In this document: piece by piece, positions 1,883 through 40,125 of the stretch
How positions within the stretch are numbered: position 1 is the first letter of the stretch
How the letters are laid out: each line of letters begins with the position of its first letter
From: a virus
Direction: 5' to 3' (one strand)
IMG/VR virus record: IMGVR_UViG_3300029303_000014
DNA length: 41,768 nucleotides
The notes under the pieces: generated by a model
What the model was told of the DNA's origin: nothing
What the model saw: the letters and a program-made list of their open reading frames with translations, nothing else
Databases searched by the model: none
Program-made: the position numbers and the translations under genes

Positions 1883-2638
1883 AATTTTTTTACAAAACTC
1901 ACTTATAAGTGAGTCAGGGCGTTGCAATAATGAGAAAATCGAACCGCAGAGGTGTAAAAGCCTTTGCGGTTCTCTCATTTATGGCGTTTAACCTCCTGCG
2001 CCATAGCGGGGCGCGGTGTTTTTCATCTTTTCACACCGCCCCCGCGATATGCCGAACGCACGATGCAGCCCACGATCAGGGCCGAGAGGTCGCACCTCTC
2101 ATGCGGCACAGGACTCCCCGCACCTCTCAACGATGTGGCCCAGGGGAGACATACGCAGACGTAGCTCAATCGGTAGAGCACCGCGCCAGGAGGTAGATGC
2201 AGGTTCAAACCCTGCCGTCTGCACCAGATGTATGCTACCGCATTGCGGCACGAAAGGGTAAGACCGCTACAAGGGGCTTGCCTGTGCGCTGTATGAAAGC
2301 GGCAGGCCGAAGAATATTTATTTAGCTGGCTCCGGCCTATAAATGAAAAAACGGATGCGACCGACATACCGGCGCAGGGCTGAAAAGTTCCGTGGTTATC
2401 CGGCGCTGCTGTCTTTGCGAGGAGGCTGAGGCGGTAAATGGATGTGGCGTGGTGACGGCAATCGAGAGATTAGGCCGTTGTGTAGGCCATGCCGAACAGA
2501 GCGCAGCGCCGGAGACTGTGTAAGTATCAAGCCCCTTAGCGGGCATAGAGTAGCCCTTCGGGGCGGGTAAAGTTTGCTATGTAAGGCCAAGGGGTGGGGG
2601 CTGGTAGCAAAAAAATGCGACAAGAGAGGTGGTGACGA
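1883..2638 (+). ncRNA. Candidate large structured non-coding RNA or leader (756 nt) upstream of terS
   Basis: No credible ORF on either strand. Many hand-paired helices: 1929-1979, 2006-2045, 2084-2100, 2280-2307, 2400-2408/2504-2512 and 2531-2564 (with a UUCG tetraloop). Contains an embedded tRNA-like element. Confidence 0.45.
2155..2226 (+). tRNA. tRNA-like element with a truncated anticodon arm (probably non-decoding or a pseudo-tRNA)
   Basis: Acceptor stem GCAGACG/CGTCTGC. D arm GCTC-AATCGGTA-GAGC. T arm GCAGG-TTCAAAC-CCTGC. Discriminator A plus encoded CCA. Only 18 nt lie where anticodon arm plus variable loop need about 21-22, and no 5-bp stem can form there. Confidence 0.5.
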
Positions 2639-3010
2639 GTGCCATTAACAGCAAAGCAAGAGAGATTTGTTCAAGAGTACCTTGTGGACTTAAATGCCAC
2701 TCAGGCCGCCGCGAGAGCCGGTTACAAGAATGCTGAAAAGGGTAGGCAGTTAGTTACGAATAGTAACGTTTCGGCTGCTATCCAGAAGGCAAAGGCAGAA
2801 AGACAGAAACGAACGGAAGTAACGCAGGACTATGTTATAGAAAAACTCAAAGAAATCGCAGACAAGCCTGCGTCTGATTGCACGGAAAGCGATTTGAAAT
2901 ATGCGAATAAGCTAAAAGCGCTTGAAATGCTGGCGAAGCATACGGGTGTGTTCGATAAGCAAGACAACACAAGCGCCGATTCCGTTGTCAAGGTGATTAT
3001 TGATGTCTGA
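2639..3010 (+). CDS. terS: Terminase small subunit
   Basis: Terminase_2-type N-terminus LTAKQERFVQEYLVDLNATQAAARAGY. GTG start after GAGAGGTGGTGA. Confidence 0.85.
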   Translation: MPLTAKQERFVQEYLVDLNATQAAARAGYKNAEKGRQLVTNSNVSAAIQKAKAERQKRTEVTQDYVIEKLKEIADKPASDCTESDLKYANKLKALEMLAKHTGVFDKQDNTSADSVVKVIIDV

Positions 3011-4241
3011 CATTCGTTTGTCAGAAAAGATCGGGCCTGCGTTTTATGACATTGCACATGACATTTTCCGGCATGGTCACACGCATTACGATTTTAGCGG
3101 TGGACGCGGTTCGTTGAAATCGTCCACGGTATCAATTATCGTCCCGCTTTTACTGGTTGCCAATCCGGGCACGCACGCGCTTGTGCTGCGCAAGGTGGCA
3201 AACACCATCCGCGATAGCGTCTATGCCCAGTATATTTGGGCAATCGGTGAGTTGGGCATGGCGGCGTATTGGGAAGCCAAGGTTTCTCCGATGGAGCTGA
3301 TCTATAAGCCGACAGGACAGAAGATCATGTTCCGTGGTGCCGATGACCCCATGAAGATCAAGTCTATCAAGGTTCCGTTCGGCTATATCGCCGTGACGCA
3401 CTTTGAAGAGAAAGACCAGTTTGCTGGACGCGCGGAAATCCGAAACATTTTGCAGTCCACCATGCGCGGCGGCTCGGTTTTCTGGAATTTTGAAAGCTAT
3501 AACCCGCCGATCTCGCGCGACAACTGGGCGAACAAGGACAGCTTAGAAGAACGCGCTGACCGGCTGTGCCACAAGTCAACATATCTGCAAGCCCCACCTG
3601 AGTGGTTGGGCGAGCAGTTTCTTGCAGAAGCGGAACACTTGAAAGAAACGGACGAGCGCGCATATCAGCATGAGTATCTCGGTATTCCGGTAGGAACTGG
3701 CGGCAATGTGTTCGATAAGCTGGAATTGAGGGAGATCACCGACAAAGAAATCGAAAGCTTCGACCGCATCTATCAGGGCGTTGACTTCGGATGGTTCCCG
3801 GATCCGTTCGCGTTTATCCGCCTGCATTATGATCGGGCAAGAGAGACGATATATCTGTTAGACGAGATTTATCAAAATAAACTATCCAACGAGCAAAGTG
3901 CGACCATGATAAAGCAGCGCAGATATAACAACGTTAGAACAATCTGTGACAGCGCGGAGCCAAAGAGCGTGGCTGACCTACGGGCAATGGGATTGCCGGC
4001 GTATGAGGCGGTCAAGGGACCCGGCTCGGTCGAATACGGCATGAAGTTCTTGCAGCGGAGAACAATTGTCATTGACAGGCGGCGCACACCGCGCGCTTAC
4101 AATGAGTTCGTGGGATACGAATACGAAAGAAACAAAGACGGCGACATTATCAGCGGATACCCAGACGCGAACAACCACTTGATTGACGCGACGAGGTATG
4201 CGTTAGAGCCTGTCAGCCGCAGAATGGGAGTTATTGCATGA
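3003..4241 (+). CDS. terL: Terminase large subunit (PBSX/Terminase_3-like)
   Basis: 412 aa. Walker-A-like GGRGSLKS, nuclease-half motifs, and position after terS. ATG 3003 (TTG 3000 is also possible). Confidence 0.93.
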   Translation: MSDIRLSEKIGPAFYDIAHDIFRHGHTHYDFSGGRGSLKSSTVSIIVPLLLVANPGTHALVLRKVANTIRDSVYAQYIWAIGELGMAAYWEAKVSPMELIYKPTGQKIMFRGADDPMKIKSIKVPFGYIAVTHFEEKDQFAGRAEIRNILQSTMRGGSVFWNFESYNPPISRDNWANKDSLEERADRLCHKSTYLQAPPEWLGEQFLAEAEHLKETDERAYQHEYLGIPVGTGGNVFDKLELREITDKEIESFDRIYQGVDFGWFPDPFAFIRLHYDRARETIYLLDEIYQNKLSNEQSATMIKQRRYNNVRTICDSAEPKSVADLRAMGLPAYEAVKGPGSVEYGMKFLQRRTIVIDRRRTPRAYNEFVGYEYERNKDGDIISGYPDANNHLIDATRYALEPVSRRMGVIA

Positions 4242-5671
4242 GCAATGCAGTTATCCAAAAGTTAAAAGAACTTGGCTATACGACGATCCCGGAAGAGTTT
4301 TACAGCCAAGTTGACCTCTGGAAGTCTTGGTATCAAGGAAACGTCAAAAACTTCCATAGATACCGCAAGTATAACGGGCATGAATGGGTTAATTGTGAGA
4401 GAGAAACACTTGGCATGGCAAAGAAAGTTTGCGAAGACTGGGCCAATTTGCTTCTGAATGAAAAAATCCAAATCACAGTTGATGGAAAAGCCGAACAGGA
4501 TTTCATTAACCGAATTTTGAAAGAAAACAACTTTTCGGTTAAGGCGAATGAAATGCAGGAGTTAAAAGCTGCACTTGGAACAGTGGCATATATCCCAAGA
4601 GTTGTTGGGCAGCGTGTTAATGATTACGGGGCGTTAATGGCTGGAACCGCAGACGATATTTTCATCGATTATGTCACAATGGAACACATTTACCCGATTT
4701 CATGGCAAAACGGAGTAATTACGGAGTGTGCATTCGATAATATCGTAAACCGAGGCGGGAAACGATATTTATTCTTACAAATTTTTAGGAAAGCAAAAAC
4801 AGGGAATTACATTATCGAAAACAGCATTTACGGGTATGAAAACGAAGTATTGACACCAGCAAACTTATCCGATGTATCAGGGTTTGAACGCATTCCGGAT
4901 TATGTAGATACTGGAAGCAGTGAGAGACAATTTGTTATTGACCGACTTGCGATTGCAAACAATGTCGATTATTTGCTTCCTACGGGGATCCCGGTATTTG
5001 CAAATTCAATAAGCGTGTTGCGCGTCATTGATAAAGCGTATGATTGCTACGCAAATGAATTTGATAATGGTGCGTTGCTTTTAGCCGTGAAAATGCCCGC
5101 CACAAGATACGAGGACGGCAGGCCCACATTTGATAAGCATGACAATCGCATTTATCTGCTTCCGGAAGATACGCAGCAAGGGAATGTTGTAGATGCGATT
5201 TCCCCGCAGTTGCGAACCTCGGAACTTAATATCGGGTTGCAAGATCAGCTAAACGTTTTGTCAAGTAAGTGCGGATTTGGAACGAATTTTTACCAATTCA
5301 ATCAGGGCGCAGTTATGGCAACGGCGACACAAGTTATTAGTACAAACTCAAAACTTGCGGAATCAAGAGGGAAACACCAACTTATTTTGCGTGATGCACT
5401 TACCGAACTATGCCGCATTCTTTTAAGACTTGGCAATAAAGCTATCGATGTAAACCTTAATGAAAATGCAGAAATCTCAATTGCGTTTGATGACTCCATT
5501 TTTATTGATACTGAATCTGAACGTGCACAGGACAGACTTGACGAAAACATGGGAGCAATGAGCCTTTTAGAATACCGTATGAAATGGTATGGAGAGGATG
5601 AAACGACTGCAAAAGCTGCGTTGGAAAAGGTGCATGAGATGGTCACAGAACCTCAAAATGAGGTCGAATAA
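4238..5671 (+). CDS. Portal protein (SPP1 gp6-like)
   Basis: 477 aa, ATGA overlap with terL, canonical position and length. Confidence 0.88.
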   Translation: MSNAVIQKLKELGYTTIPEEFYSQVDLWKSWYQGNVKNFHRYRKYNGHEWVNCERETLGMAKKVCEDWANLLLNEKIQITVDGKAEQDFINRILKENNFSVKANEMQELKAALGTVAYIPRVVGQRVNDYGALMAGTADDIFIDYVTMEHIYPISWQNGVITECAFDNIVNRGGKRYLFLQIFRKAKTGNYIIENSIYGYENEVLTPANLSDVSGFERIPDYVDTGSSERQFVIDRLAIANNVDYLLPTGIPVFANSISVLRVIDKAYDCYANEFDNGALLLAVKMPATRYEDGRPTFDKHDNRIYLLPEDTQQGNVVDAISPQLRTSELNIGLQDQLNVLSSKCGFGTNFYQFNQGAVMATATQVISTNSKLAESRGKHQLILRDALTELCRILLRLGNKAIDVNLNENAEISIAFDDSIFIDTESERAQDRLDENMGAMSLLEYRMKWYGEDETTAKAALEKVHEMVTEPQNEVE

Positions 5672-5674
5672 AGT

Positions 5675-6844
5675 ATGGCGAAATATCCGTTTACGCCGGA
5701 AATCCTCGATGCTCTCCCAGAAGAATTAGCAAAAATCTATCGCGCTCTCGAAAACACGCTGCTTGATGAGATTTGCAGCCGATTGGCCTTCGCAGATCAG
5801 CTCAATGAAGTTACGGTGCAGGATATTCGAGCGCTGAGATCGCACGGCATTGACCTTAGAAGCATCGAAGAAGCTATTAGCAAAACAGCAGGGATTAGCA
5901 AACAAAAGCTAAATAGTTTGCTTAATGACGTTGTAGAGCGCAACCAGAAGTATTACACCGAAGTCATCGACCTTGCGCATGTAACGCAGCCAGAAACGCT
6001 TGTAGACGCGGCTACAGTGGATGCAATTAAGCGGCAGACCCATGATACATTCCGCAATTTAACGGCTTCTATGGGTTTCCTCGTGGGTAACACGATGTTA
6101 AAGCCCGCGCGCGCTTATCAGTGGGCTTTGGATAACGCAGAAATGCAGATCCAGAGCAGCGCGATCAGCTACAATCAGGCTATTGCAAACGTTGTAAGGC
6201 AGCTCGCAGATAGTGGCATTAAAGTTGTAGACTACGAAAGCGGGCATCGTGATTTCATTGATGTAGCGGCGCGTCGCGCTGTGATGACCGGCGTAAATCA
6301 GATTTGCGCCAAGTACACCGAGAAATCGGCGGAGTATTTAGATACCCCGTATTTTGAGGTTTCTGCCCATGCGGGCGCACGCGATATTCCGGGCAAATCA
6401 CCGTGGTCATCTCACAAAGCATGGCAAGGCCTCGTATATTCCACTCGTAGCAATGACATTTACCCCAGCATTTACGATGTGTGCGGTCTTGGGGCCGTTG
6501 ATGGGCTTGAGGGGGCTAACTGCCGACACAGGCGGAATGTTTGGGTTGAGGGCGTAAGCGAACGCACATACACTGATGAGCAACTTGCCCATATTGATGA
6601 TGATCTTGGCTGCACGTTTGACGGAAAGAAATACACTGCATACGATGCGACGCAGATGCAACGGCGCGTTGAGCGACAGATTATCAAGCAGAAAAAGCTT
6701 GTAACAGCATATAAGGCGAGTGAGCAAAAGGACGAATATTATGCCGCAAAAGCAAAACTGGCAAGACTGAACGCCAAATATAAGGCTTTTAGTAAAGCGG
6801 CGGGGTTGCCGCTGCAATGGGAAAGGACAAAGGTGCTGTATTGA
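5675..6844 (+). CDS. Minor head protein, MuF / SPP1 gp7 family
   Basis: 389 aa following the portal. Central region is Phage_Mu_F-like. Confidence 0.8.
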   Translation: MAKYPFTPEILDALPEELAKIYRALENTLLDEICSRLAFADQLNEVTVQDIRALRSHGIDLRSIEEAISKTAGISKQKLNSLLNDVVERNQKYYTEVIDLAHVTQPETLVDAATVDAIKRQTHDTFRNLTASMGFLVGNTMLKPARAYQWALDNAEMQIQSSAISYNQAIANVVRQLADSGIKVVDYESGHRDFIDVAARRAVMTGVNQICAKYTEKSAEYLDTPYFEVSAHAGARDIPGKSPWSSHKAWQGLVYSTRSNDIYPSIYDVCGLGAVDGLEGANCRHRRNVWVEGVSERTYTDEQLAHIDDDLGCTFDGKKYTAYDATQMQRRVERQIIKQKKLVTAYKASEQKDEYYAAKAKLARLNAKYKAFSKAAGLPLQWERTKVLY

Positions 6845-6975
6845 ACTTTGACGAAGCCATCAAAACCGTGCAAGCAATCCTAAAGCGCGGCAACGATGCA
6901 GAGATACGTAGAAAAGGCGATGGGTATATCGTCTTAGAGGTCAAAAAGACAATCAAATACAGCACTCAAACATAA
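6841..6975 (+). CDS. Possible small ORF (44 aa, TTG start)
   Basis: TTG overlaps the MuF stop and AAGGTG lies upstream. Below the track cutoff. Weak support. Confidence 0.3.
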   Translation: MNFDEAIKTVQAILKRGNDAEIRRKGDGYIVLEVKKTIKYSTQT

Positions 6976-6981
6976 AAGAAA

Positions 6982-7001
6982 CCGCCCCGGTTAAGGGGCG
7001 G
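6982..7001 (-). terminator. Hairpin terminator for minus-strand gene 7041..7238
   Basis: CCGCCCC-GGTTAA-GGGGCGG. The A-run on the plus side gives a T-tail on the minus strand. There is no T-tail on the plus strand. Confidence 0.6.
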
Positions 7002-7040
7002 GGAAATCGTTATCTTTACTGTCTTGAATGTCCATTTAAG

Positions 7041-7238
7041 TTAAAACCCAAGTTTCGTTTGACGATTGATCTCGTAAGCAACTCCTGCATCATAAGCCTT
7101 AATAAGTGGCAAAAGTCCGTTTTCCACTTCTTCCATGAGAGCGTACATCGCGTTACTTTTGCAAGCGGGAACAATTTCCCTTTGCTCGTGCGCCTCCTTG
7201 ATGCCAATTTCATAAGCTTTTACTTCAACGGCGGTCAT
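7041..7238 (-). CDS. Hypothetical 65-aa protein, reverse-oriented inside the head module
   Basis: Clean ORF with its own terminator, divergent from the RHH gene. No family recognised. Confidence 0.6.
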   Translation of the reverse strand: MTAVEVKAYEIGIKEAHEQREIVPACKSNAMYALMEEVENGLLPLIKAYDAGVAYEINRQTKLGF

Positions 7239-7295
7239 GTCAAATTCCTTTCCGGCTTTCGCCTGTCACATTTGTTCCTTGTGAGTATAGGATAC

Positions 7296-7311
7296 TATAA
7301 GTTTACTTATA
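7296..7311. promoter_or_regulatory. Operator-like inverted repeat TATAAGT-tt-ACTTATA
   Basis: Perfect 7-bp arms in the divergent intergenic region. Confidence 0.55.
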
Positions 7312-7362
7312 TTTCAAGATGGGATATTCCACAATAAATTGGGGGTTGAATTGTTAAAAATG

Positions 7363-7397
7363 TATAAGTTGACTTATTACAGAGAGTGTGATACTAT
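7363..7397 (+). promoter_or_regulatory. Promoter TTGACT-17-TACTAT, overlapped by a second operator TATAAGT-tg-ACTTAT
   Basis: -35 at 7369-7374 and -10 at 7392-7397 with TGa immediately upstream. The inverted repeat at 7363-7377 overlaps the -35. Confidence 0.6.
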
Positions 7398-7419
7398 GTT
7401 GCAAAAGGAGGTTTGCAGC

Positions 7420-7596
7420 ATGGCAACAGAGGCGCAGATAAGAGCAAGCACGAAGTACAACCGGAAACAGGACTCCTTAACGGTGAGGGTGGATAAAGAA
7501 ACCGGCAAAAAGATACGCGATGCCGCAGAACGGCGAGGCGTAAGCGTAAAAGAGTTTATTCTTGCGGCGGTAATGCCGCACATCAACGATAAGTAA
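7420..7596 (+). CDS. Ribbon-helix-helix (Arc/CopG-like) DNA-binding protein (58 aa)
   Basis: AAAGGAGG RBS. Pattern KYNRKQDSLTVRVDKETGKKIRDAAERRGVSVKEFILAAV is typical of Arc-like RHH proteins. Confidence 0.7.
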   Translation: MATEAQIRASTKYNRKQDSLTVRVDKETGKKIRDAAERRGVSVKEFILAAVMPHINDK

Positions 7597-7637
7597 ATAA
7601 CAACTTCCGCGTAATTGGGCGCGGGAAAGGGCAATAG

Positions 7638-7685
7638 GAGCCGAACGGTACGCGGATTTTGCGGGTTGTTCGGCTCTTTTGTTTT
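7638..7685 (+). terminator. Rho-independent terminator
   Basis: GAGCCGAAC ... GTTCGGCTC (9 bp) followed by TTTTGTTTT. Confidence 0.75.
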
Positions 7686-7698
7686 AGGAGGGCTAAAT

Positions 7699-8361
7699 AT
7701 GGCAGATGAAAATGGAGTTTGGCGCACAATCAGCGGGCGGCGTGTTTTCATTCGAGACGGACAGAGCCTAACGGACGCGATGCGGGAAAGCGGGAAGTTT
7801 AACCGCGAGGAAACTGGTGGCGCGGGGCACATTGACGAGGGTGATTTGTATGAGGCGCTTGAAGATCTACCAGATGACGAGGCTGAAAAGCTAATCCAGT
7901 CAATTAGGTACTACACAGATGATTATACGTGGTCGCTTGAAACAAAAGAAGAAGTGCAAAACATCAACAAAGCCATAGAAGAAGCAAAGTCCGTCCACTG
8001 GAACGATGGCGAGCTTTATCGTGGGATTAATGTTGATTCGGATTTTTTGGAAAGTCTCAAAGAGGGAGACGTGATCGAAACAGGGCTGCCCAGTTCTTGG
8101 AGTTCGGACGCTTCGGTTGCAGTCGAATTTGCGTCCGGACAGCATTTAGAATCTTCAAATGGCACAAGCGCTGTTCTGGTTGACACTACAAGTGGGGCAA
8201 GAAACGCAATATCAATTCGAGATTTTTCCAGATACCCAGATGAGCAGGAAGTTTTATATAGCGGCAACTCTTCTTTCCAAGTAGTCGGCTTCCGCGAAGA
8301 AGAGAACCCAGCTGATGGGAGCACTATTTATATGGTTGAAGTTGAGGAGGTCAGAAAATGA
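7699..8361 (+). CDS. ADP-ribosyltransferase (R-S-ExE class, exoenzyme-type)
   Basis: 220 aa with AGGAGGG RBS. Motifs ELYRG, LPSSWSS and YPDEQEVLY in the correct order and spacing. Confidence 0.78.
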   Translation: MADENGVWRTISGRRVFIRDGQSLTDAMRESGKFNREETGGAGHIDEGDLYEALEDLPDDEAEKLIQSIRYYTDDYTWSLETKEEVQNINKAIEEAKSVHWNDGELYRGINVDSDFLESLKEGDVIETGLPSSWSSDASVAVEFASGQHLESSNGTSAVLVDTTSGARNAISIRDFSRYPDEQEVLYSGNSSFQVVGFREEENPADGSTIYMVEVEEVRK

Positions 8362-8507
8362 AAAGCGAGAATGGGATTACATTGCAGCGAAAATGGGAAT
8401 CAAAATTCAATGCTGTTTCTGTGAAAAAGAGTTTGCAAACCAGGCTTAAAACACAAATGCAGAAAAACGCTGTGGCAAAAAAACGCAGTGGAAATAAAGG
8501 AGAATAA
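8358..8507 (+). CDS. Small basic ORF (49 aa, below the track cutoff)
   Basis: GAGGAGG lies 7 nt upstream. ATGA overlap with the ART stop. Fills the gap before the scaffold gene. Confidence 0.45.
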   Translation: MKSENGITLQRKWESKFNAVSVKKSLQTRLKTQMQKNAVAKKRSGNKGE

Positions 8508-8510
8508 AAA

Positions 8511-9008
8511 ATGGCAGACGAAATCATTACTTTTGATGAAATACTGGCTGACCCCACCTATAAGGCGGAGTTTGACAGGCGAATCACAAAGGCGCTTTCG
8601 ACTGTTCAGAGCAAACTGGACGCGGAAGTGGAGAAAAACAAGCAGTTTGCGGCAAGTGGAAGCGCGGAAACGGAAGCGCTCAGAAAGGAGATCGAGGGCT
8701 ACAAGTCTAAGATCGCCGATTATGACTACGCAGATGTGATCCGCAAGACGCTTGCTGAAAAGGGCGTGAAATTCAGCTCTAAGGCTGCGGAAAAGGCATA
8801 TTTGGCAGACCTGAAAGCAAAGCACCTTGAAATCAAGGACGGTGCTCTTGATGGGTTTGACGAATGGCACAAGGCGCAAGTCAGCGCCGATCCATCCGCG
8901 TTCCAAGACGGCGTAAAAATCGACTGGTCTGCCGCTGTTGGCGGCGGCGAAAAGAAAACAGATACCAATGCCGCGATGAACAATCTGATCCGCGGCGCAC
9001 TCAAGTAA
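8511..9008 (+). CDS. Scaffolding protein (DUF4355-like)
   Basis: 165 aa, coiled-coil and acidic, immediately upstream of the capsid gene. Confidence 0.78.
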   Translation: MADEIITFDEILADPTYKAEFDRRITKALSTVQSKLDAEVEKNKQFAASGSAETEALRKEIEGYKSKIADYDYADVIRKTLAEKGVKFSSKAAEKAYLADLKAKHLEIKDGALDGFDEWHKAQVSADPSAFQDGVKIDWSAAVGGGEKKTDTNAAMNNLIRGALK

Positions 9009-9026: not shown

Positions 9027-10241
9027 ATGGCAAGTATTGATCGTTCCGCCCTTTCCGGCCTTATTCCGGAACCCGTAACCCGCGAGATCATGCAGGGCGC
9101 TATCGCGGAATCCGCTGTCCTGCGCATGGGCCGTCGTCTGGCGAATATGTCCAGCAAGACGCAGACCATCAACGTGCTTGACGCACTTCCCTCCGCGTAC
9201 TTCGTGAACGGCGAGGCCACCGACAGCGGCGCTGGTGAGGCGTTCAAGCAGACCACCAAGATGGCGTGGGACAAAAAGAAACTGTACGCCGAGGAAATCG
9301 CGGTTATCGTCCCCATTCCCGAGGCTGCTCTCGATGATGCGGACTATGACATTTGGGGCGAGGTCAAGCCCCGTCTGACCGAAGCTTTCGGCAAGGTCAT
9401 TGATGCGGCTATCCTGTTCGGCACCAACAAGCCCAGCACTTGGCGCACTGGCGTTGTTCCTGCTGCTATCGCTGCCGGTAACGGTGTTCCCGTCGGCACC
9501 AGCGTGTTTGACGACATCATGGGCGAGAATGGCCTAATCTCCAAGGTTGAGCTGGACGGCTTCAACCCCAACGGCGTTATGTCCGCTATCCAGATGCGCG
9601 GTAAGCTGCGCGGCCTGAAGGACACCACCGGTCAGCCCATCTTCAAGTCCGATATGCAGGGTGCCACCCGCTATGGCCTTGATGGTATGGACATGTACTT
9701 CCCGATGAACGGCGCATTTGACCCCGCACAGGCGCAGATGATCGTCGGCGATTGGAGCCAGCTCGTCTATGCCATTCGCCAGGATATGACCTTCAAGGTC
9801 TTTACCGAGGGCGTGATTCAGGATCCCGCCACGAAGGACATCGTTTACAACCTCATGCAGAACGATATGGTCGCGCTGCGCGCTGTCATGCGTCTTGGCT
9901 GGGAGATTGCAAACCCCATCAACGCTTACAACGCAGAAAAGGTGAACCCGTTCCCCTTCTCCGTTTACGGCAAGGGTGGTGCTATTTCCACCGTTGCTGT
10001 GTCCCCTGCTACCGCCACCGTAAAGAAGGGCGAGAGCAAGCTGTTTACCGCCAAGGTTGACGGCGAGGGCATCATCAACGGCGAGGTTGAATGGTCTCAG
10101 GACGGCACGAAGAGCAAGATCAGCGATGAGGGCGTTCTGACCGTTTCTGCTACCGAAACCAAGAGTAGCATCACCGTTACCGCGAAGTCCAAGCAGGACG
10201 GGACCAAGACCGGCACTGCCACCGTTACTGTTTCTGCCTGA
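9027..10241 (+). CDS. Major capsid protein (HK97 fold) with a C-terminal Ig-like (Big_2-type) domain
   Basis: 404 aa in the expected position. The C-terminal ~85 aa, VAVSPATATVKKGESKLFTAKV...TATVTVSA, is Big_2-like. Confidence 0.88.
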   Translation: MASIDRSALSGLIPEPVTREIMQGAIAESAVLRMGRRLANMSSKTQTINVLDALPSAYFVNGEATDSGAGEAFKQTTKMAWDKKKLYAEEIAVIVPIPEAALDDADYDIWGEVKPRLTEAFGKVIDAAILFGTNKPSTWRTGVVPAAIAAGNGVPVGTSVFDDIMGENGLISKVELDGFNPNGVMSAIQMRGKLRGLKDTTGQPIFKSDMQGATRYGLDGMDMYFPMNGAFDPAQAQMIVGDWSQLVYAIRQDMTFKVFTEGVIQDPATKDIVYNLMQNDMVALRAVMRLGWEIANPINAYNAEKVNPFPFSVYGKGGAISTVAVSPATATVKKGESKLFTAKVDGEGIINGEVEWSQDGTKSKISDEGVLTVSATETKSSITVTAKSKQDGTKTGTATVTVSA

Positions 10242-20843: not shown

Positions 20844-21785
20844 ATGGCAAGACCAATCAGCGGAATCGACCTGACCGAAGTCCTCCACTACACGGAAACC
20901 ATCAGCGGCGTGACACAGACCGTTGCTTACTGGCCCATCCGCAAGGACGCGGACGGCGTGGTACTCCTGCGGAAAAATGTGCTGGACGAGCAGCGCAAAA
21001 TGAGCACAACCGATGAAGCAACGTACATCAATAACCTGGTGGATACATGGCTGAATGACGAAACAGCGGGCTATCTCTCGTATTTTGACGAGAAAATGCG
21101 GGCGTGCATCATCCCGTCCACAATCAAAATCAAGCCATATAACTCCGACGTCGTAACCGAGATCGCGCGGCAAGTGTATCTGCTCAGCGAGGACGAGGTA
21201 GCGACCGGCGGCGTGGAGGGCGAGAGCATCCTGCCGATGCTCAAGGCGCATACGGGCGAGACGAACGATAACAATGCGCGAAAAGCATTCAATACAGATG
21301 GTGTCTTGAAAAACTGGTGGCTACGCAATGCCGTGAGTGCCGAGCAGTTCCAATTTATCCTTTCAAATGGCGTGCTTTCATACACCTCTGCGAGTACTAA
21401 TGCTTCAGTCCGCCCTGTATTCAAGGTGGCGAACAATACTCTGGTATCCGACAAAACGTCGGACACTATCTACATCCTGCCGGATGCCAGCAAGCCTTAC
21501 CGGGAATTAAGCTTCACGGCGTTTTTGGGCAGCACGGCACAGCGACCCAAACGGGCAAAGGTGCAGGTGGCGATCAACTATGCAACGGAGAAAACCATCT
21601 ACATCAGCAACAACGCCAAGGACGCTAACCCCGTGTGGGTGACGTGCGAACCGGATCAGGTGGTGGAGCTGCCCAACGCCGAGAAAACCACGGAATTGTG
21701 GGAGCTAGGCGTGAAAATCTACGCCAAAGGCGAGGGCAGAGTGACATGTGGGGAGCCGGTGGCGATCGCGGAGGAGGCAAAATGA
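20844..21785 (+). CDS. Tail fibre accessory/receptor-binding candidate (DUF6273-like core)
   Basis: 313 aa. The pattern KNWWLRNA...VRPVFKV is recalled from DUF6273-type domains. Confidence 0.6.
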   Translation: MARPISGIDLTEVLHYTETISGVTQTVAYWPIRKDADGVVLLRKNVLDEQRKMSTTDEATYINNLVDTWLNDETAGYLSYFDEKMRACIIPSTIKIKPYNSDVVTEIARQVYLLSEDEVATGGVEGESILPMLKAHTGETNDNNARKAFNTDGVLKNWWLRNAVSAEQFQFILSNGVLSYTSASTNASVRPVFKVANNTLVSDKTSDTIYILPDASKPYRELSFTAFLGSTAQRPKRAKVQVAINYATEKTIYISNNAKDANPVWVTCEPDQVVELPNAEKTTELWELGVKIYAKGEGRVTCGEPVAIAEEAK

Positions 21786-36012: not shown

Positions 36013-36666
36013 ATGGGAGCTGCATCTACAAGGTGCTATGTAAAGGCATATTACGACTGGATCGAGCAAACAGCCGCGCTGGAAGATGACGAAAAAGGCC
36101 GTCTGTTTGTTGCGATTTTAGAATATGCCAGGTCGGGTGAAATCCCTGATACCCTCGGGAGAGAGGCCCTTTTATTTCCGGTATTCAAGGCGGTCGTTGA
36201 CCGTGACGCTCAAAAATCCGGTGCGCTGGCTCAAAACGGAGCGGCTGGCGGCAGAGTGTCAAAAACAAATGCAAGCAAATGTAAGCAAACGCAAGCAAAT
36301 GCAAGCAAATGTAAGCCTACTAATAACATAAGACATAAGACAGAAGACAGAGAACAGAAGACAGAAGACGATATACCCCCTAAATCCCCCTCTACGGGGG
36401 ACGCATTCGAACGTTTCTGGTCAGTTTACCCGCGAAAAATCGGGAAACAGTCTGCTAAGAGAGCTTTCGAGCGGGTCAAAGTCCCACTCGAAACACTTGT
36501 GACCGCGGTGGAGCGGCAGAAGTGCAGCGACCAATGGACGCAGAACAACGGGCAGTTTATTCCACACCCCGCTACATGGCTGAATCAAGGCCGGTGGGAC
36601 GATGAGCTGCCCGAGAGCGGCAGAGGGTATCACTACGACTACGGCAACACGGAGGGAAGCCTATGA
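36013..36666 (+). CDS. Replisome organiser / DnaD-like replication initiation protein
   Basis: C-terminal FERFWSVYPRKIGK...ATWLNQGRWDDE. Has internal iterons and is followed by a DnaC-like loader. Confidence 0.72.
   Translation: MGAASTRCYVKAYYDWIEQTAALEDDEKGRLFVAILEYARSGEIPDTLGREALLFPVFKAVVDRDAQKSGALAQNGAAGGRVSKTNASKCKQTQANASKCKPTNNIRHKTEDREQKTEDDIPPKSPSTGDAFERFWSVYPRKIGKQSAKRAFERVKVPLETLVTAVERQKCSDQWTQNNGQFIPHPATWLNQGRWDDELPESGRGYHYDYGNTEGSL
36261..36320 (+). repeat. Tandem 10-bp iterons G(C/T)AAGCAAA(T/C), about 5-6 copies
   Basis: aaaaacaaat gcaagcaaat gtaagcaaac gcaagcaaat gcaagcaaat gtaagcctac. Confidence 0.85.
36328..36369 (+). repeat. Tandem 7-bp repeats A(T/G)A(A/G)(G/A)AC, 6 copies
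   Basis: ataagac ataagac agaagac agagaac agaagac agaagac. Confidence 0.85.
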
Positions 36667-37490
36667 ACGTTGACGCATTGATCGACAGCATCGCAGAAAA
36701 GGCCGAGCCTGTGCGCGATCTGGTCGACTACGAGAAAGATGGGCTGCTGTACTGCGGCCATTGCAACACACCGAAGCAGTGCCGCATCCCCATCGGCGGG
36801 AACGTCCGCCTTGTCGGCTGCCAGTGCGCTTGTGCGGCGCGAGAGTACGAGGCCGAGAAAAAAGCTCGCGCTGACCGCGAGAAGCGGTTGCGCATCGAAA
36901 CGCTGCGCGCTGACGGAATCCGCGACAAGAGCCTGACGGCGTGCCGGTTTGACACGGCAACGATGAGCGAGGAAATCGTCAAGTGCAAGCGCTATGCCGA
37001 CGCGTGGGACGATATGCGGCGCGAGAACAATGGGCTTCTGCTGTGGGGCAACACCGGCAACGGCAAGACCTTCGCGGCTGCGTGCATCGCCAACGAGCTG
37101 ATTGATCGCGGAATCCCTGCGATGATTACGAGTTTCCCGCGAATCCTCAACGCGGGATATGACAAGCAGGAAATCATCAAGCAGGTGCGATACTACCCGT
37201 TGCTGGTGATTGACGATCTCGGCGCAGAGCGCAGCAGTGAGTACGCAATGGAGACGGTTTACACGGTCATTGACGAGCGATACAAGGCAAAAAAGCCGCT
37301 GATCGTCACCACGAACCTGACGCTGGACGAGTTGTGCAAGCCGAAGAACATGGACTATCAGCGCATCTATGATCGCGTGATCGAGATGTGCACGCCGCTT
37401 GTGTTCAAGGGCGACAACCTGCGACGCGAAAAGGCGAATAAGCGCCTGCGGTATGTCAAGTCGGTGTTGGAGGGCAGCAATGGGCATTGA
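36663..37490 (+). CDS. DnaC/IstB-like AAA+ helicase loader
   Basis: Walker A is GNTGNGKT, Walker B is LLVIDDLG, plus an N-terminal Cys cluster. Confidence 0.85.
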   Translation: MNVDALIDSIAEKAEPVRDLVDYEKDGLLYCGHCNTPKQCRIPIGGNVRLVGCQCACAAREYEAEKKARADREKRLRIETLRADGIRDKSLTACRFDTATMSEEIVKCKRYADAWDDMRRENNGLLLWGNTGNGKTFAAACIANELIDRGIPAMITSFPRILNAGYDKQEIIKQVRYYPLLVIDDLGAERSSEYAMETVYTVIDERYKAKKPLIVTTNLTLDELCKPKNMDYQRIYDRVIEMCTPLVFKGDNLRREKANKRLRYVKSVLEGSNGH

Positions 37491-38808: not shown

Positions 38809-39059
38809 GCAAGGTCATGAGACCGAAAACGCCGTTTGAGTTCTGCGTTTATCCAGTGCTCAAGGAAGCGCTGGAAAAGACGAACTATAACCAGACAGAA
38901 CTGGCGCAATCCCTCGGAATGTCGCAGTTTACGGTGTCGGCGTGGGCACGCGGCGACCGCGATACAACGGTGAGGCTGCTGCTGGCGCTGAAAGACCTGA
39001 CGGGGATGACGTTCCGCGAGCTGTTCGGGGAATGCGAGGGACGTCATGGAAGGGTATAG
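38805..39059 (+). CDS. HTH-like small protein (84 aa), paralogue of the previous gene
   Basis: ATGA overlap with the upstream gene. Shares the pattern described for 38572..38808. Confidence 0.62.
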   Translation: MSKVMRPKTPFEFCVYPVLKEALEKTNYNQTELAQSLGMSQFTVSAWARGDRDTTVRLLLALKDLTGMTFRELFGECEGRHGRV

Positions 39060-40125
39060 CAATCAGCCAATTCCGAAAGAAGCGGCGAAACAGCTTTTAG
39101 CCCTCGACTTGGAAGACAAAGAAATTTTAACCTACGAAAAGCTCGACCAGTGGTACACCGCGTGGAACGGGAAGTGCTATGTGTCATTCTCCGGCGGCAA
39201 GGATAGCACGGTGCTGGCATACTTGGCGGCGCGTTACCTGTCGAGCTTCAGGGCACCGCCGTGGGAGCTGAATCTGGTGTTTGTGAACACGGGGCTGGAA
39301 TATCCGGAGATTCAGCGGTTCGTGAACGAATATACGGACTGGCTGCGGAGGGAGTTTCCCCGCGTGACCGTCAAACTACACCGTCTGCGTCCGAAGATGA
39401 ACATTCGGCAGGTGGTAGCAAAGTACGGGTACAGCATCGTGAGCAAAGAGGTTGCGGAATATGTCAGAGATGCCCGCAGGAACCCAAGCTGCTTGAGAAT
39501 GAAGCGGTTGCGGGGGGAAGCCGTGCGAAAAAACGGTCAGCCGTCTGCCTACAACTGCGAGAAATGGGAATATCTGTTGTACGCACCGTTTGTAATCTCC
39601 TCGACGTGCTGCGCCATTATGAAAAAGTCACCGCTGAAAACCTACGAACACAAAACCGGGCAGCAGGCTACAACAGCGACGATGGCGGAGGAAAGCAGAT
39701 TACGCATGACGAATTGGCTGAATACTGGGTGCAACGCCTTTGATGGCAAGCGCCCGATGGGAAAGCCCATGAGTTTCTGGACGGAGCAGGACGTGTTGCG
39801 ATTCATCGTAGACCGAGAGCTACCTATCGCCAGCGTATACGGCGACATCGTGGCGAGCGACGGCGAGAACGACTATGCGGAAACGCTGATCGACTGCAAG
39901 CTGCACTGCACGGGGTGCCGGCGCACGGGGTGCATGTTCTGCGCATTTGGCGCGCACCTCGAAAAGGGAGAAAACCGGTTTGAGCGCATGAAGCACACGC
40001 ATCCGAAGCACTATGCCTTTTGCATCGGTGGTGGGGCTTACGATCCCGCTGACGGGATGTGGAAGCCAAACGAAAAGGGGCTGGGCTATGGGCGAGTGCT
40101 GGATTACATTGGAGTGAGGTATTGA
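39046..40125 (+). CDS. PAPS-reductase-family PP-loop protein with a C-terminal Cys cluster
   Basis: PP-loop is SFSGGKDSTVLAYL. C-terminal CTGCRRTGCMFCAFG. Confidence 0.82.
   Translation: MEGYSNQPIPKEAAKQLLALDLEDKEILTYEKLDQWYTAWNGKCYVSFSGGKDSTVLAYLAARYLSSFRAPPWELNLVFVNTGLEYPEIQRFVNEYTDWLRREFPRVTVKLHRLRPKMNIRQVVAKYGYSIVSKEVAEYVRDARRNPSCLRMKRLRGEAVRKNGQPSAYNCEKWEYLLYAPFVISSTCCAIMKKSPLKTYEHKTGQQATTATMAEESRLRMTNWLNTGCNAFDGKRPMGKPMSFWTEQDVLRFIVDRELPIASVYGDIVASDGENDYAETLIDCKLHCTGCRRTGCMFCAFGAHLEKGENRFERMKHTHPKHYAFCIGGGAYDPADGMWKPNEKGLGYGRVLDYIGVRY

Follow-up and report, generated by a model that had tools for sequence, protein, structure and literature searches.

Enzyme delivery by temperate phages of Gram-positive bacteria is known mainly from MuF-linked toxins and polyvalent proteins, a route that has so far been defined by physical fusion. 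Other described arrangements bear on it as well: in T4 a capsid-targeting sequence is cleaved by the prohead protease, morons are extra transcription units lying between conserved phage genes, and the immI region of P22 holds the Arc and Mnt ribbon-helix-helix (RHH) repressors inside the late operon. MuF polymorphic toxins are defined by a MuF domain at the N-terminus of the toxin's own polypeptide (Jamet et al. 2017, PMC5576092; Apk2 work, PMC12226406), and a small ORF (open reading frame) lies 3′ of the toxin in 89% of them (PMC5576092; PMC12226406). The polyvalent-protein papers (PMC5512222; PMC9503650) mention, only briefly, 'solo' versions of the effectors and ADP-ribosyltransferases (ARTs) encoded next to head genes. 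Here we analysed a viral DNA of 41,768 nucleotides (IMG/VR record IMGVR_UViG_3300029303_000014; its full length is called the window below), in which a short MuF gene, a cassette of two small divergent genes and a free-standing ART gene precede the scaffolding protein gene.

The window is the genome or prophage of a temperate siphophage; its temperate nature follows from a tyrosine integrase gene (29142-30170, minus strand). The phage is an SPP1-like siphophage of gut Clostridia, and its matches in the GenBank phage collection were limited to three unannotated faecal contigs. The initial annotation held that the cassette separates MuF from its ART, and it offered three roles for the cassette: an immunity module for the ART, a toxin-antitoxin pair, or an unrelated moron. 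The explanation that we favour, and consider probable as a whole, is that the interval between MuF and the scaffold gene is a hypervariable slot with three independent layers, namely the phage backbone, an exchangeable effector unit and a moron, and that the cassette is this moron, autonomous, autoregulated by its RHH protein and without any specific link to the ART. The locus represents an unfused version of the MuF and polyvalent effector system that is very common in human-gut phage contigs. With it comes a very large family, apparently without a name so far, of exchangeable effectors that bear a common module and are encoded next to short MuF genes; ART, RNases, zeta-like kinases and CdiA-type nucleases are among them.

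Distribution of the cassette, the ART and p49

Relatives were fetched both by DNA and by protein, and the tally covered 115 sequences, 26 of which carry this ART. The cassette is absent from 21 of the 26 ART loci, and the five loci that have it all belong to the window's own phage type. Where it is absent, the order is MuF, small ORF, hairpins, ART, 49-aa ORF and scaffold. The more divergent loci L004-L009, whose ARTs are 72-83% identical to that of the window, show MuF, a small ORF, a hairpin, the ART, a small basic ORF and the scaffold gene, again without the cassette. The same holds for all ten places at which an ART of at least 90% identity sits on the same backbone (L105-L114); an ART protein at this level of identity is indexed in 362 collection blocks. 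Since the ART is a separate gene in every cassette-less relative, distant or close, the proposal that the cassette splits MuF from the ART does not hold.

The borders of the cassette were derived from L105, which lacks it and is 95.7% identical downstream, and from L002; both have an empty site. Compared with L105, the cassette is a clean insertion of 639 bp with its own promoters, operators and terminator. Being an extra, self-contained unit that separates neighbouring genes of the relatives, the cassette qualifies as a moron, and its description as an indel and as an autonomous divergent unit was thereby confirmed. The insert had been described as a segment of about 720 bp bounded by two hairpins. 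That there is an insert proved correct, but its true size is smaller and the right-hand hairpin belongs to the backbone.

The reverse situation is found in L019, which stands for a type with about 40 indexed blocks in the collection. Here the cassette occupies the same slot, at 88-92% nucleotide identity and with identical operators, whereas the effector gene is absent and the RHH gene is followed by the hairpins and then by the scaffold gene. Prophages of Oscillospiraceae, Acutalibacteraceae and Clostridia (L020, L021, L102 and L104) encode more distant homologues of the 65-aa cassette protein (45-75% identity) within their replication or early regions, on the same strand as their neighbours and with no divergent RHH gene. 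Together with the cassette-less ART loci, L019 and these homologues favour the unrelated-moron option. Cassette genes at unrelated sites are also what the initial annotation itself had named as evidence against its proposal.

These distributions decide most clearly on the immunity option, by which the 65-aa or the RHH protein would keep the ART inactive in lysogens or producing cells. Its appeal lies in the position of the cassette immediately 5′ of the ART, in an RHH promoter that aims at the ART, and in the resemblance of the RHH protein to the DNA-binding domains of the TacA and HicB antitoxins. It conflicts, however, with the lack of a cassette in most ART loci, including every one with a closely identical ART, with the L019 cassette that has no effector beside it, with the occurrence of the 65-aa gene at unrelated positions in early regions elsewhere, and with the perfect covariation of the ART with a different small ORF, p49. 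We therefore find an immunity or antitoxin role of the cassette scarcely credible.

The ORF p49, which was missed in the initial annotation, encodes a basic protein of 49 aa directly behind the ART. All 26 ART loci have it, and all 79 loci with other effectors lack it. Its start codon overlaps the ART stop codon (ATGA), it is conserved in L004 and L007, and it lies inside the exchanged segment 7801-8482. Because identity to relatives is lost after the N-terminal module of the effector and is back at 8483, the exchanged unit consists of the ART domain plus p49. No family match was found for p49 in Pfam, PHROGs, NCBIfam or PADLOC. Since p49 both tracks and swaps with the ART, it is a better candidate than the cassette for a partner or immunity-like protein, and we propose it as a candidate cognate partner or immunity-like protein of the ART that may restrain or chaperone the enzyme in the producing cell. 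Attention thus moves to p49 as the putative ART partner and away from the cassette, which becomes an ordinary self-regulated two-gene moron.

Anatomy and control of the cassette

The reverse-oriented 65-aa gene, the RHH gene, the promoter in front of the latter and the two inverted repeats were all found at the positions given in the initial annotation (Table 1). The 65-aa gene is a real gene according to its codon-position bias, which is 38 at the third position versus 17 and 10 at the others in a comparison with L020, and its product would probably be expressed from the prophage. The AlphaFold model of the protein consists of three helices (pLDDT 94). It has no family match in Pfam, PHROGs, NCBIfam or PADLOC, and Foldseek found nothing with E < 1 for its model in PDB or BFVD. 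A VbhA-antitoxin-like fold (TM 0.72, E = 5.8) was discounted for lack of the S/T-x-x-x-E-G/N motif, and the sole match from a profile search of PDB, a designed repeat protein, was likewise dismissed. The 58-aa RHH protein, which is 95% identical in L019, showed weaker, sub-threshold matches to HicB, RHH_1, NikA-like, ParD and CopG families on the same residues as its TacA1 match, and it matches a PHROG of Arc-like repressors; by these profiles it has the beta-alpha-alpha domain of Arc/MetJ/CopG repressors.

The 16-bp palindrome pattern occurs twice in the window, against 0.03 occurrences expected by chance. With one palindrome (O1) in the spacer of one promoter and the other (O2) over the -35 element of the opposite promoter, the geometry is the one expected if the RHH protein represses both. 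The RHH protein is thus probably the autorepressor of the two divergent promoters, with an RHH dimer binding O1 and O2. Both hairpins named in the initial annotation are real by their folding z-scores (-2.8 for the left and -5.0 for the right). The T-run of the left hairpin lies on the minus strand, so that this hairpin terminates the 65-aa gene only. The cassette would be insulated on one side by this terminator (7001-6982) and on the other by the backbone hairpin at 7686.

A remnant of a third gene lies 3′ of the 65-aa gene. In L019 this gene is intact at 4245-4421 and encodes 58 aa (MMNINLKTRTIKLSRREV...) with no family match, whereas the window lacks 173 bp of it. The intact copy indicates that the ancestral cassette had three genes and that the cassette in the window is a deletion derivative, and the loss shows a cassette that is decaying or being streamlined.

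Two further functions of the cassette can be weighed on this anatomy. As a type II toxin-antitoxin pair, it would encode a 65-aa toxin and an RHH protein acting as antitoxin and repressor; the antitoxin-like Pfam matches of the RHH protein (TacA1, HicB, RelB and ParD) and the palindromic operators typical of autoregulated toxin-antitoxin loci are in line with this. The two genes are divergent, however, and not co-transcribed, and the RHH protein comprises 58 aa only, with no C-terminal neutralising extension. Moreover, neither family nor fold searches link the 65-aa protein to a toxin, homologues of it are found where this RHH protein is missing, and the ancestral cassette had a third gene. 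A toxin-antitoxin pair, the second of the roles offered in the initial annotation, is therefore disfavoured and appears very improbable.

The cassette might instead be a regulatory switch with a layout like that of P22 immI, allowing read-through into the ART and p49 in the prophage state, or its 65-aa product might be an antirepressor-like early regulator. An RHH regulator with divergent, operator-covered promoters is indeed embedded in a late operon here, just one hairpin separates the RHH gene from the ART, and the 65-aa gene of other phages opens an early operon under a strong promoter. Yet the same cassette precedes the scaffold gene in L019, where there is no effector, a hairpin with a U-run should stop RHH transcripts, and no Ant-like gene is present. 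We regard such a switch as distinctly unlikely, and an autonomous moron remains the reading of the cassette that we prefer.

The ART and its constant N-terminal module

The initial annotation had noted an intact R-S-ExE set in the 220-aa ORF downstream of the cassette, and this was borne out by alignment: all 16 homologues, with identities down to 36%, keep R108 (LYRG), S132/S133/S136 (SSWSS) and E182/E184 (EQE). The ORF matches Pfam ART (PF01129) with 29.4 bits against a cutoff of 22.3, while the match to PF03496 (21.4 bits) stays just under its cutoff of 23.4. A PHROG termed 'RNA polymerase ADP-ribosylase' was matched at 1.1e-4, and the near-identical protein DAZ47932.1 carries the annotation 'NAD:arginine ADP-ribosyltransferase'. 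The AlphaFold model (pLDDT 82) shows a predicted ART fold and was matched by Foldseek with probability 1.0 to Vis (4xzj), Tre1 (6drh), C3, iota, CDTa and VIP2. A homologue search yielded about 20 relatives of the ART, of which 18 count as orthologues (at least 60% identity). As far as the alignment and the predicted fold can tell, the ART is catalytically intact and of the arginine type (R / S-x-S / E-x-E).

Beyond these ART homologues, about 90 short proteins resemble the ART over their first ~34 residues only (75-100% identity) and have entirely different sequences thereafter. The shared part is a constant module, which sits N-terminally in all short matches and follows the pattern GVWRT-x-x-GR-x-VFI-x-x-G-x-x-L-x-x-AM-x-x-x-x-KF, with 10 invariant residues. 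According to the AlphaFold model, it would fold as a beta-hairpin (residues 6-19) and a helix (24-33), with a disordered linker behind them. Searching 1.84 billion representatives with a 37-position profile of the module yielded 1,266 clusters at 50% identity, of which 950 had E <= 1e-10. Its C-terminal partners include PBECR1 and PBECR3 RNases, other ARTs, Zeta-toxin kinases, LPD3, LPD13, CdiA_C and the anthrax-LF-like ATLF, and most C-termini behind the module belong to no family.

Nearly all of the proteins headed by the module have their genes immediately behind MuF. The order portal, MuF, (p52), module-effector and scaffold is kept in 68 of the 80 IMG/VR loci that carry the module, and the 68 loci show 13 unrelated C-terminal types (L010, L011, L014 and L015 are examples). 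At the nucleotide level, the window shares with L010 or L014 an island of 89-92% identity that spans exactly 7675-7800, with diverged or unrelated sequence to either side. Likeness to these two and to L001 returns at 8483, immediately ahead of the scaffold gene.

The module has no match in Pfam, PHROGs, NCBIfam, PADLOC or PDB; Tako8 repeats returned by a profile search of PDB were judged spurious. PF26816, which is precomputed for one ART orthologue, was rejected as the module family because it marks only one of about 110 module-bearing proteins. The 34-aa module is not described in the MuF toxin papers (PMC5576092, PMC12226406), nor is it named among the domains in the searched text of the polyvalent-protein paper (PMC5512222; PMC9503650).

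Two loci display other states of module-bearing genes. L012 has two in tandem (4001-4603 and 5036-5683), each with a CdiA_C nuclease-type domain, before a DUF4355 scaffold gene, which means that one phage can carry more than one tagged effector. L001, the closest GenBank relative by MuF (87% identity), retains at 7424-7729 the last 101 codons of a 286-aa module-effector of the P0045 type. This remnant is without the N-terminal module and about 180 codons, and this loss identifies it as a decayed cargo gene.

The module also occurs within large fused proteins. Two to four copies were found in MuF-containing polyvalent proteins of 750-2221 aa together with Phage_Mu_F, Acb1, Zeta toxin and ART-PolyVal domains, placed directly N-terminal to effector domains. 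In P0154, MuF occupies residues 1218-1337, a module starts at 1978 and an ADPrib_exo_Tox (ART) domain follows at 2029-2213; in P0193 the order is module, ART, module, Zeta toxin. By this domain order, the window has as a gene of its own the module-ART unit that forms the C-terminal part of a MuF polyprotein elsewhere. The contrast between fused and split MuF-ART architectures thus holds over long-term evolution: fused forms do exist elsewhere, as in P0154, but the split is old and unrelated to the cassette. The anti-CBASS domain Acb1 was found in P0150, P0154, P0155 and P0158 (1,935-2,221 aa), with a module copy right behind it in P0154 and P0158, which suggests that anti-defence enzymes are among the delivered payloads.

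The module is a candidate virion-targeting or pre-toxin element. In the mechanism that we envisage, the ART would be made late together with the head proteins, enter the procapsid through its N-terminal module and be ejected with the DNA into the next host, where it would ADP-ribosylate a host target, probably on arginine, as T4 Alt does. The module would serve as a trafficking or junction ('pre-toxin') element and at the same time as a homology anchor for swapping effector-plus-partner cassettes. More specifically, and only tentatively, we put forward the possibility that it is a portable head-incorporation or ejection tag not previously described, which would define 'trans-MuF' polymorphic effectors in more than 1,000 clusters with differing payloads, swapped by recombination at the module. 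If true, phages with a short MuF would inject exchangeable cargo that is not fused to any structural protein, and the tag could be used to load chosen proteins into siphophage capsids.

The ART may, on the other hand, not be virion cargo at all, and could act as a late intracellular host modifier like T4 ModA and ModB or as a toxin released at lysis, the module being only a recombination junction or a regulatory or degradation tag. Consistent with this, the module is found in cis with MuF as well, so that no docking in trans is needed, and its high nucleotide conservation fits a recombination anchor. The near-invariant position between MuF and the scaffold gene (in 68 of 80 loci) nevertheless points to the head, as does the company that the module keeps with MuF and with the domains of known virion-delivered polyvalent effectors, and the 10 invariant residues represent an amino-acid conservation beyond the needs of a DNA-level junction. 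We hold a role outside the virion to be doubtful. A processing site, a junction, a recombination anchor like the VENN or pre-toxin motifs in other polymorphic toxins, and an incorporation or ejection tag acting through another partner are equally compatible with the data on the module.

Several observations count against the explanation as a whole. Occurrence of the module in cis with MuF means that docking onto MuF in trans is not required. The codon-position bias of p49 is only weak, its homologue search gave just three near-identical proteins, and the presence of p49 at all 26 ART loci overstates the independent support for the link because these loci are phylogenetically related. The link between the RHH protein and its operators is drawn from position alone, and the intergenic region is nearly identical in the sole other cassette lineage. 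Finally, the explanation leaves a terminator-like hairpin just 5′ of the ART, scaffold and capsid genes without explanation.

The head-gene backbone and comparison with known systems

The backbone layer consists of the short MuF gene, the conserved p52 ORF and the terminator-like pair of hairpins (Table 1), and the muf gene lies directly 3′ of an SPP1-type portal gene. The MuF protein has 389 aa and matches positions 2-364 of the 366 in the Pfam model; as the model is matched over its full length, the protein is a 'short MuF' without a C-terminal extension, and its reported end at 6844 was verified by the ORF and by this coverage. Long MuF proteins are encoded in L007 (2322-4028, 568 aa) and L003 (4198-5724, 508 aa), and their C-terminal extensions match no known family; L007, which also has a separate module-ART gene, may carry both cis and trans cargo. 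The scaffold gene was assigned on a Pfam match of 32 bits, which is below the gathering cutoff of 35.

The small ORF p52, also missed in the initial annotation, has homologues in L002, L004, L019, L105 and most of the 80 IMG/VR loci, and a third-codon-position bias of 21 versus 7 and 6. Its last codons were altered by insertion of the cassette, since the C-terminus reads KYSTSAQ* at the empty site (L105) and KYSTQT* in the window. Searches of Pfam, PHROGs, NCBIfam and PADLOC gave no family match for p52. In the majority of related phages MuF is followed by a conserved ORF of 43-52 aa, both with and without an effector gene. An obligatory adaptor role of p52 for module-effectors was discarded: p52 is missing beside the effectors of L010 and L014, and in L002 and L019 it stands without an effector.

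The two-hairpin element is kept in L002 (5225-5304), L004 (~4907-4985), L019 (~3557-3640) and L105, with stem sequences that differ and complementarity that is maintained. Since it lies outside the insertion and is present in the cassette-less L002, L004 and L105, it is part of the phage backbone, and the right-hand hairpin was ruled out as a cassette border. Rfam contains no family for it. The element is oddly placed inside the late operon, 5′ of the effector or scaffold gene and before the most highly expressed head genes, and it may partition, attenuate or stabilise late transcripts.

Between portal and MuF, L105-L114 (~28-1292) have two extra genes, one of them DUF4417, both of which are missing from the window; this interval is a second variable slot of the head module. 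Elsewhere in the window we noted a tRNA gene just 5′ of the terminase genes (2155-2223, plus strand; Rfam RF00005, 55 bits) and, all on the plus strand, a DUF6273 gene (20844-21785), an IstB/DnaC-like ATPase gene (36663-37490) and a PAPS-reductase-like gene (39046-40125, 5.4e1 bits).

Table 1. Features of the head-gene region in window coordinates, with the evidence for each.
Feature	Position	Strand	Evidence or remarks
Terminase large subunit	3000-4241		
SPP1-type portal	4238-5671		
Short MuF-type minor head protein (MuF2 / Phage_min_cap2)	5675-6844	+	Pfam PF06152, E = 2.5e-80; phrog_581 minor head protein
p52, small ORF of 52 aa	6817-6975	+	Homologues after MuF in relatives
Inserted cassette (moron), 639 bp	6967-7605		Flanked by 3-nt repeat ACT; BLASTN and junction comparison
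Intrinsic terminator of 65-aa gene	6982-7001	-	Stem of 7 G-C pairs, then TTTCTTTTAT on minus strand; z-score -2.8
Remnant of third cassette gene (58 aa)	6991-7034	-	Last 14 codons and stop
65-aa three-helix protein	7041-7238	-	38 homologues, 66-97% identity
Promoter-like site of 65-aa gene, TTGAAA-17-TATCCT	7289-7317	-	Promoter scan, 9/12 matches
Operator-like palindrome O1, TATAAGTTTACTTATA	7296-7311		Fills spacer of minus-strand promoter-like site; same in L019
Operator-like palindrome O2, TATAAGTTGACTTATT	7363-7378		Overlaps -35 of RHH promoter; same in L019
RHH gene promoter, TTGACT-17-TACTAT with TG extension	7369-7397	+	Followed by AAGGAGG and ATG at 7420
58-aa ribbon-helix-helix protein	7420-7596	+	Pfam TacA1, 23.2 bits (cutoff 21), residues 20-54
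Two-hairpin element ending in U-run, terminator-like	7605-7686	+	Folding z-score -5.0; hairpin ~7636-7686
Free-standing R-S-E ART effector: module, linker, ART domain	7699-8361	+	Pfam, alignment, fold
Constant N-terminal module of effector, 34 aa (GVWRTISGRRVFIRDGQSLTDAMRESGKF)	7699-7800	+	Common to ~90 short proteins
p49, basic ORF of 49 aa	8358-8507	+	Co-inherited with ART domain
Scaffolding protein	8511-9008	+	Pfam Phage_scaffold, E = 1.5e-7; downstream border of variable slot
HK97-type capsid protein	9027-10241		

Compared with the described systems, the cassette shares with morons and with P22 immI its own promoter and terminator, the divergent promoters covered by operator-like palindromes and a small putative RHH repressor. 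Unlike P22 immI, it has no Ant-like antirepressor, its 65-aa product has no known relative, and it is a deletion derivative of a three-gene unit. The ART resembles T4 Alt in being a free-standing R-S-E enzyme whose gene lies among head genes and which is presumed to travel with the DNA; it differs in that the stretch from portal to capsid gene shows no evident protease gene, its module is unrelated and the phage is a siphovirus.

The closest parallels are with MuF polymorphic toxins and polyvalent proteins. Like the former, the locus belongs to a temperate phage, has muf directly after the portal gene and a variable toxin-type domain (the ART), and carries a small ORF after the toxin that swaps together with the variable part. 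MuF polymorphic toxins, however, hold MuF and toxin in one polypeptide, whereas the two are separate ORFs in all 26 ART loci, and the window combines a short MuF with a toxin domain headed by its own constant 34-aa module. Polyvalent proteins have at least two effector domains per polypeptide, and the protein in the window has one; they nonetheless share with the present system the repertoire of ART, PBECR, Zeta toxin, LPD and Acb1 domains, together with the same module (Iyer et al. 2017, PMC5512222; Iyer et al. 2022, PMC9503650, for the polyvalent proteins).

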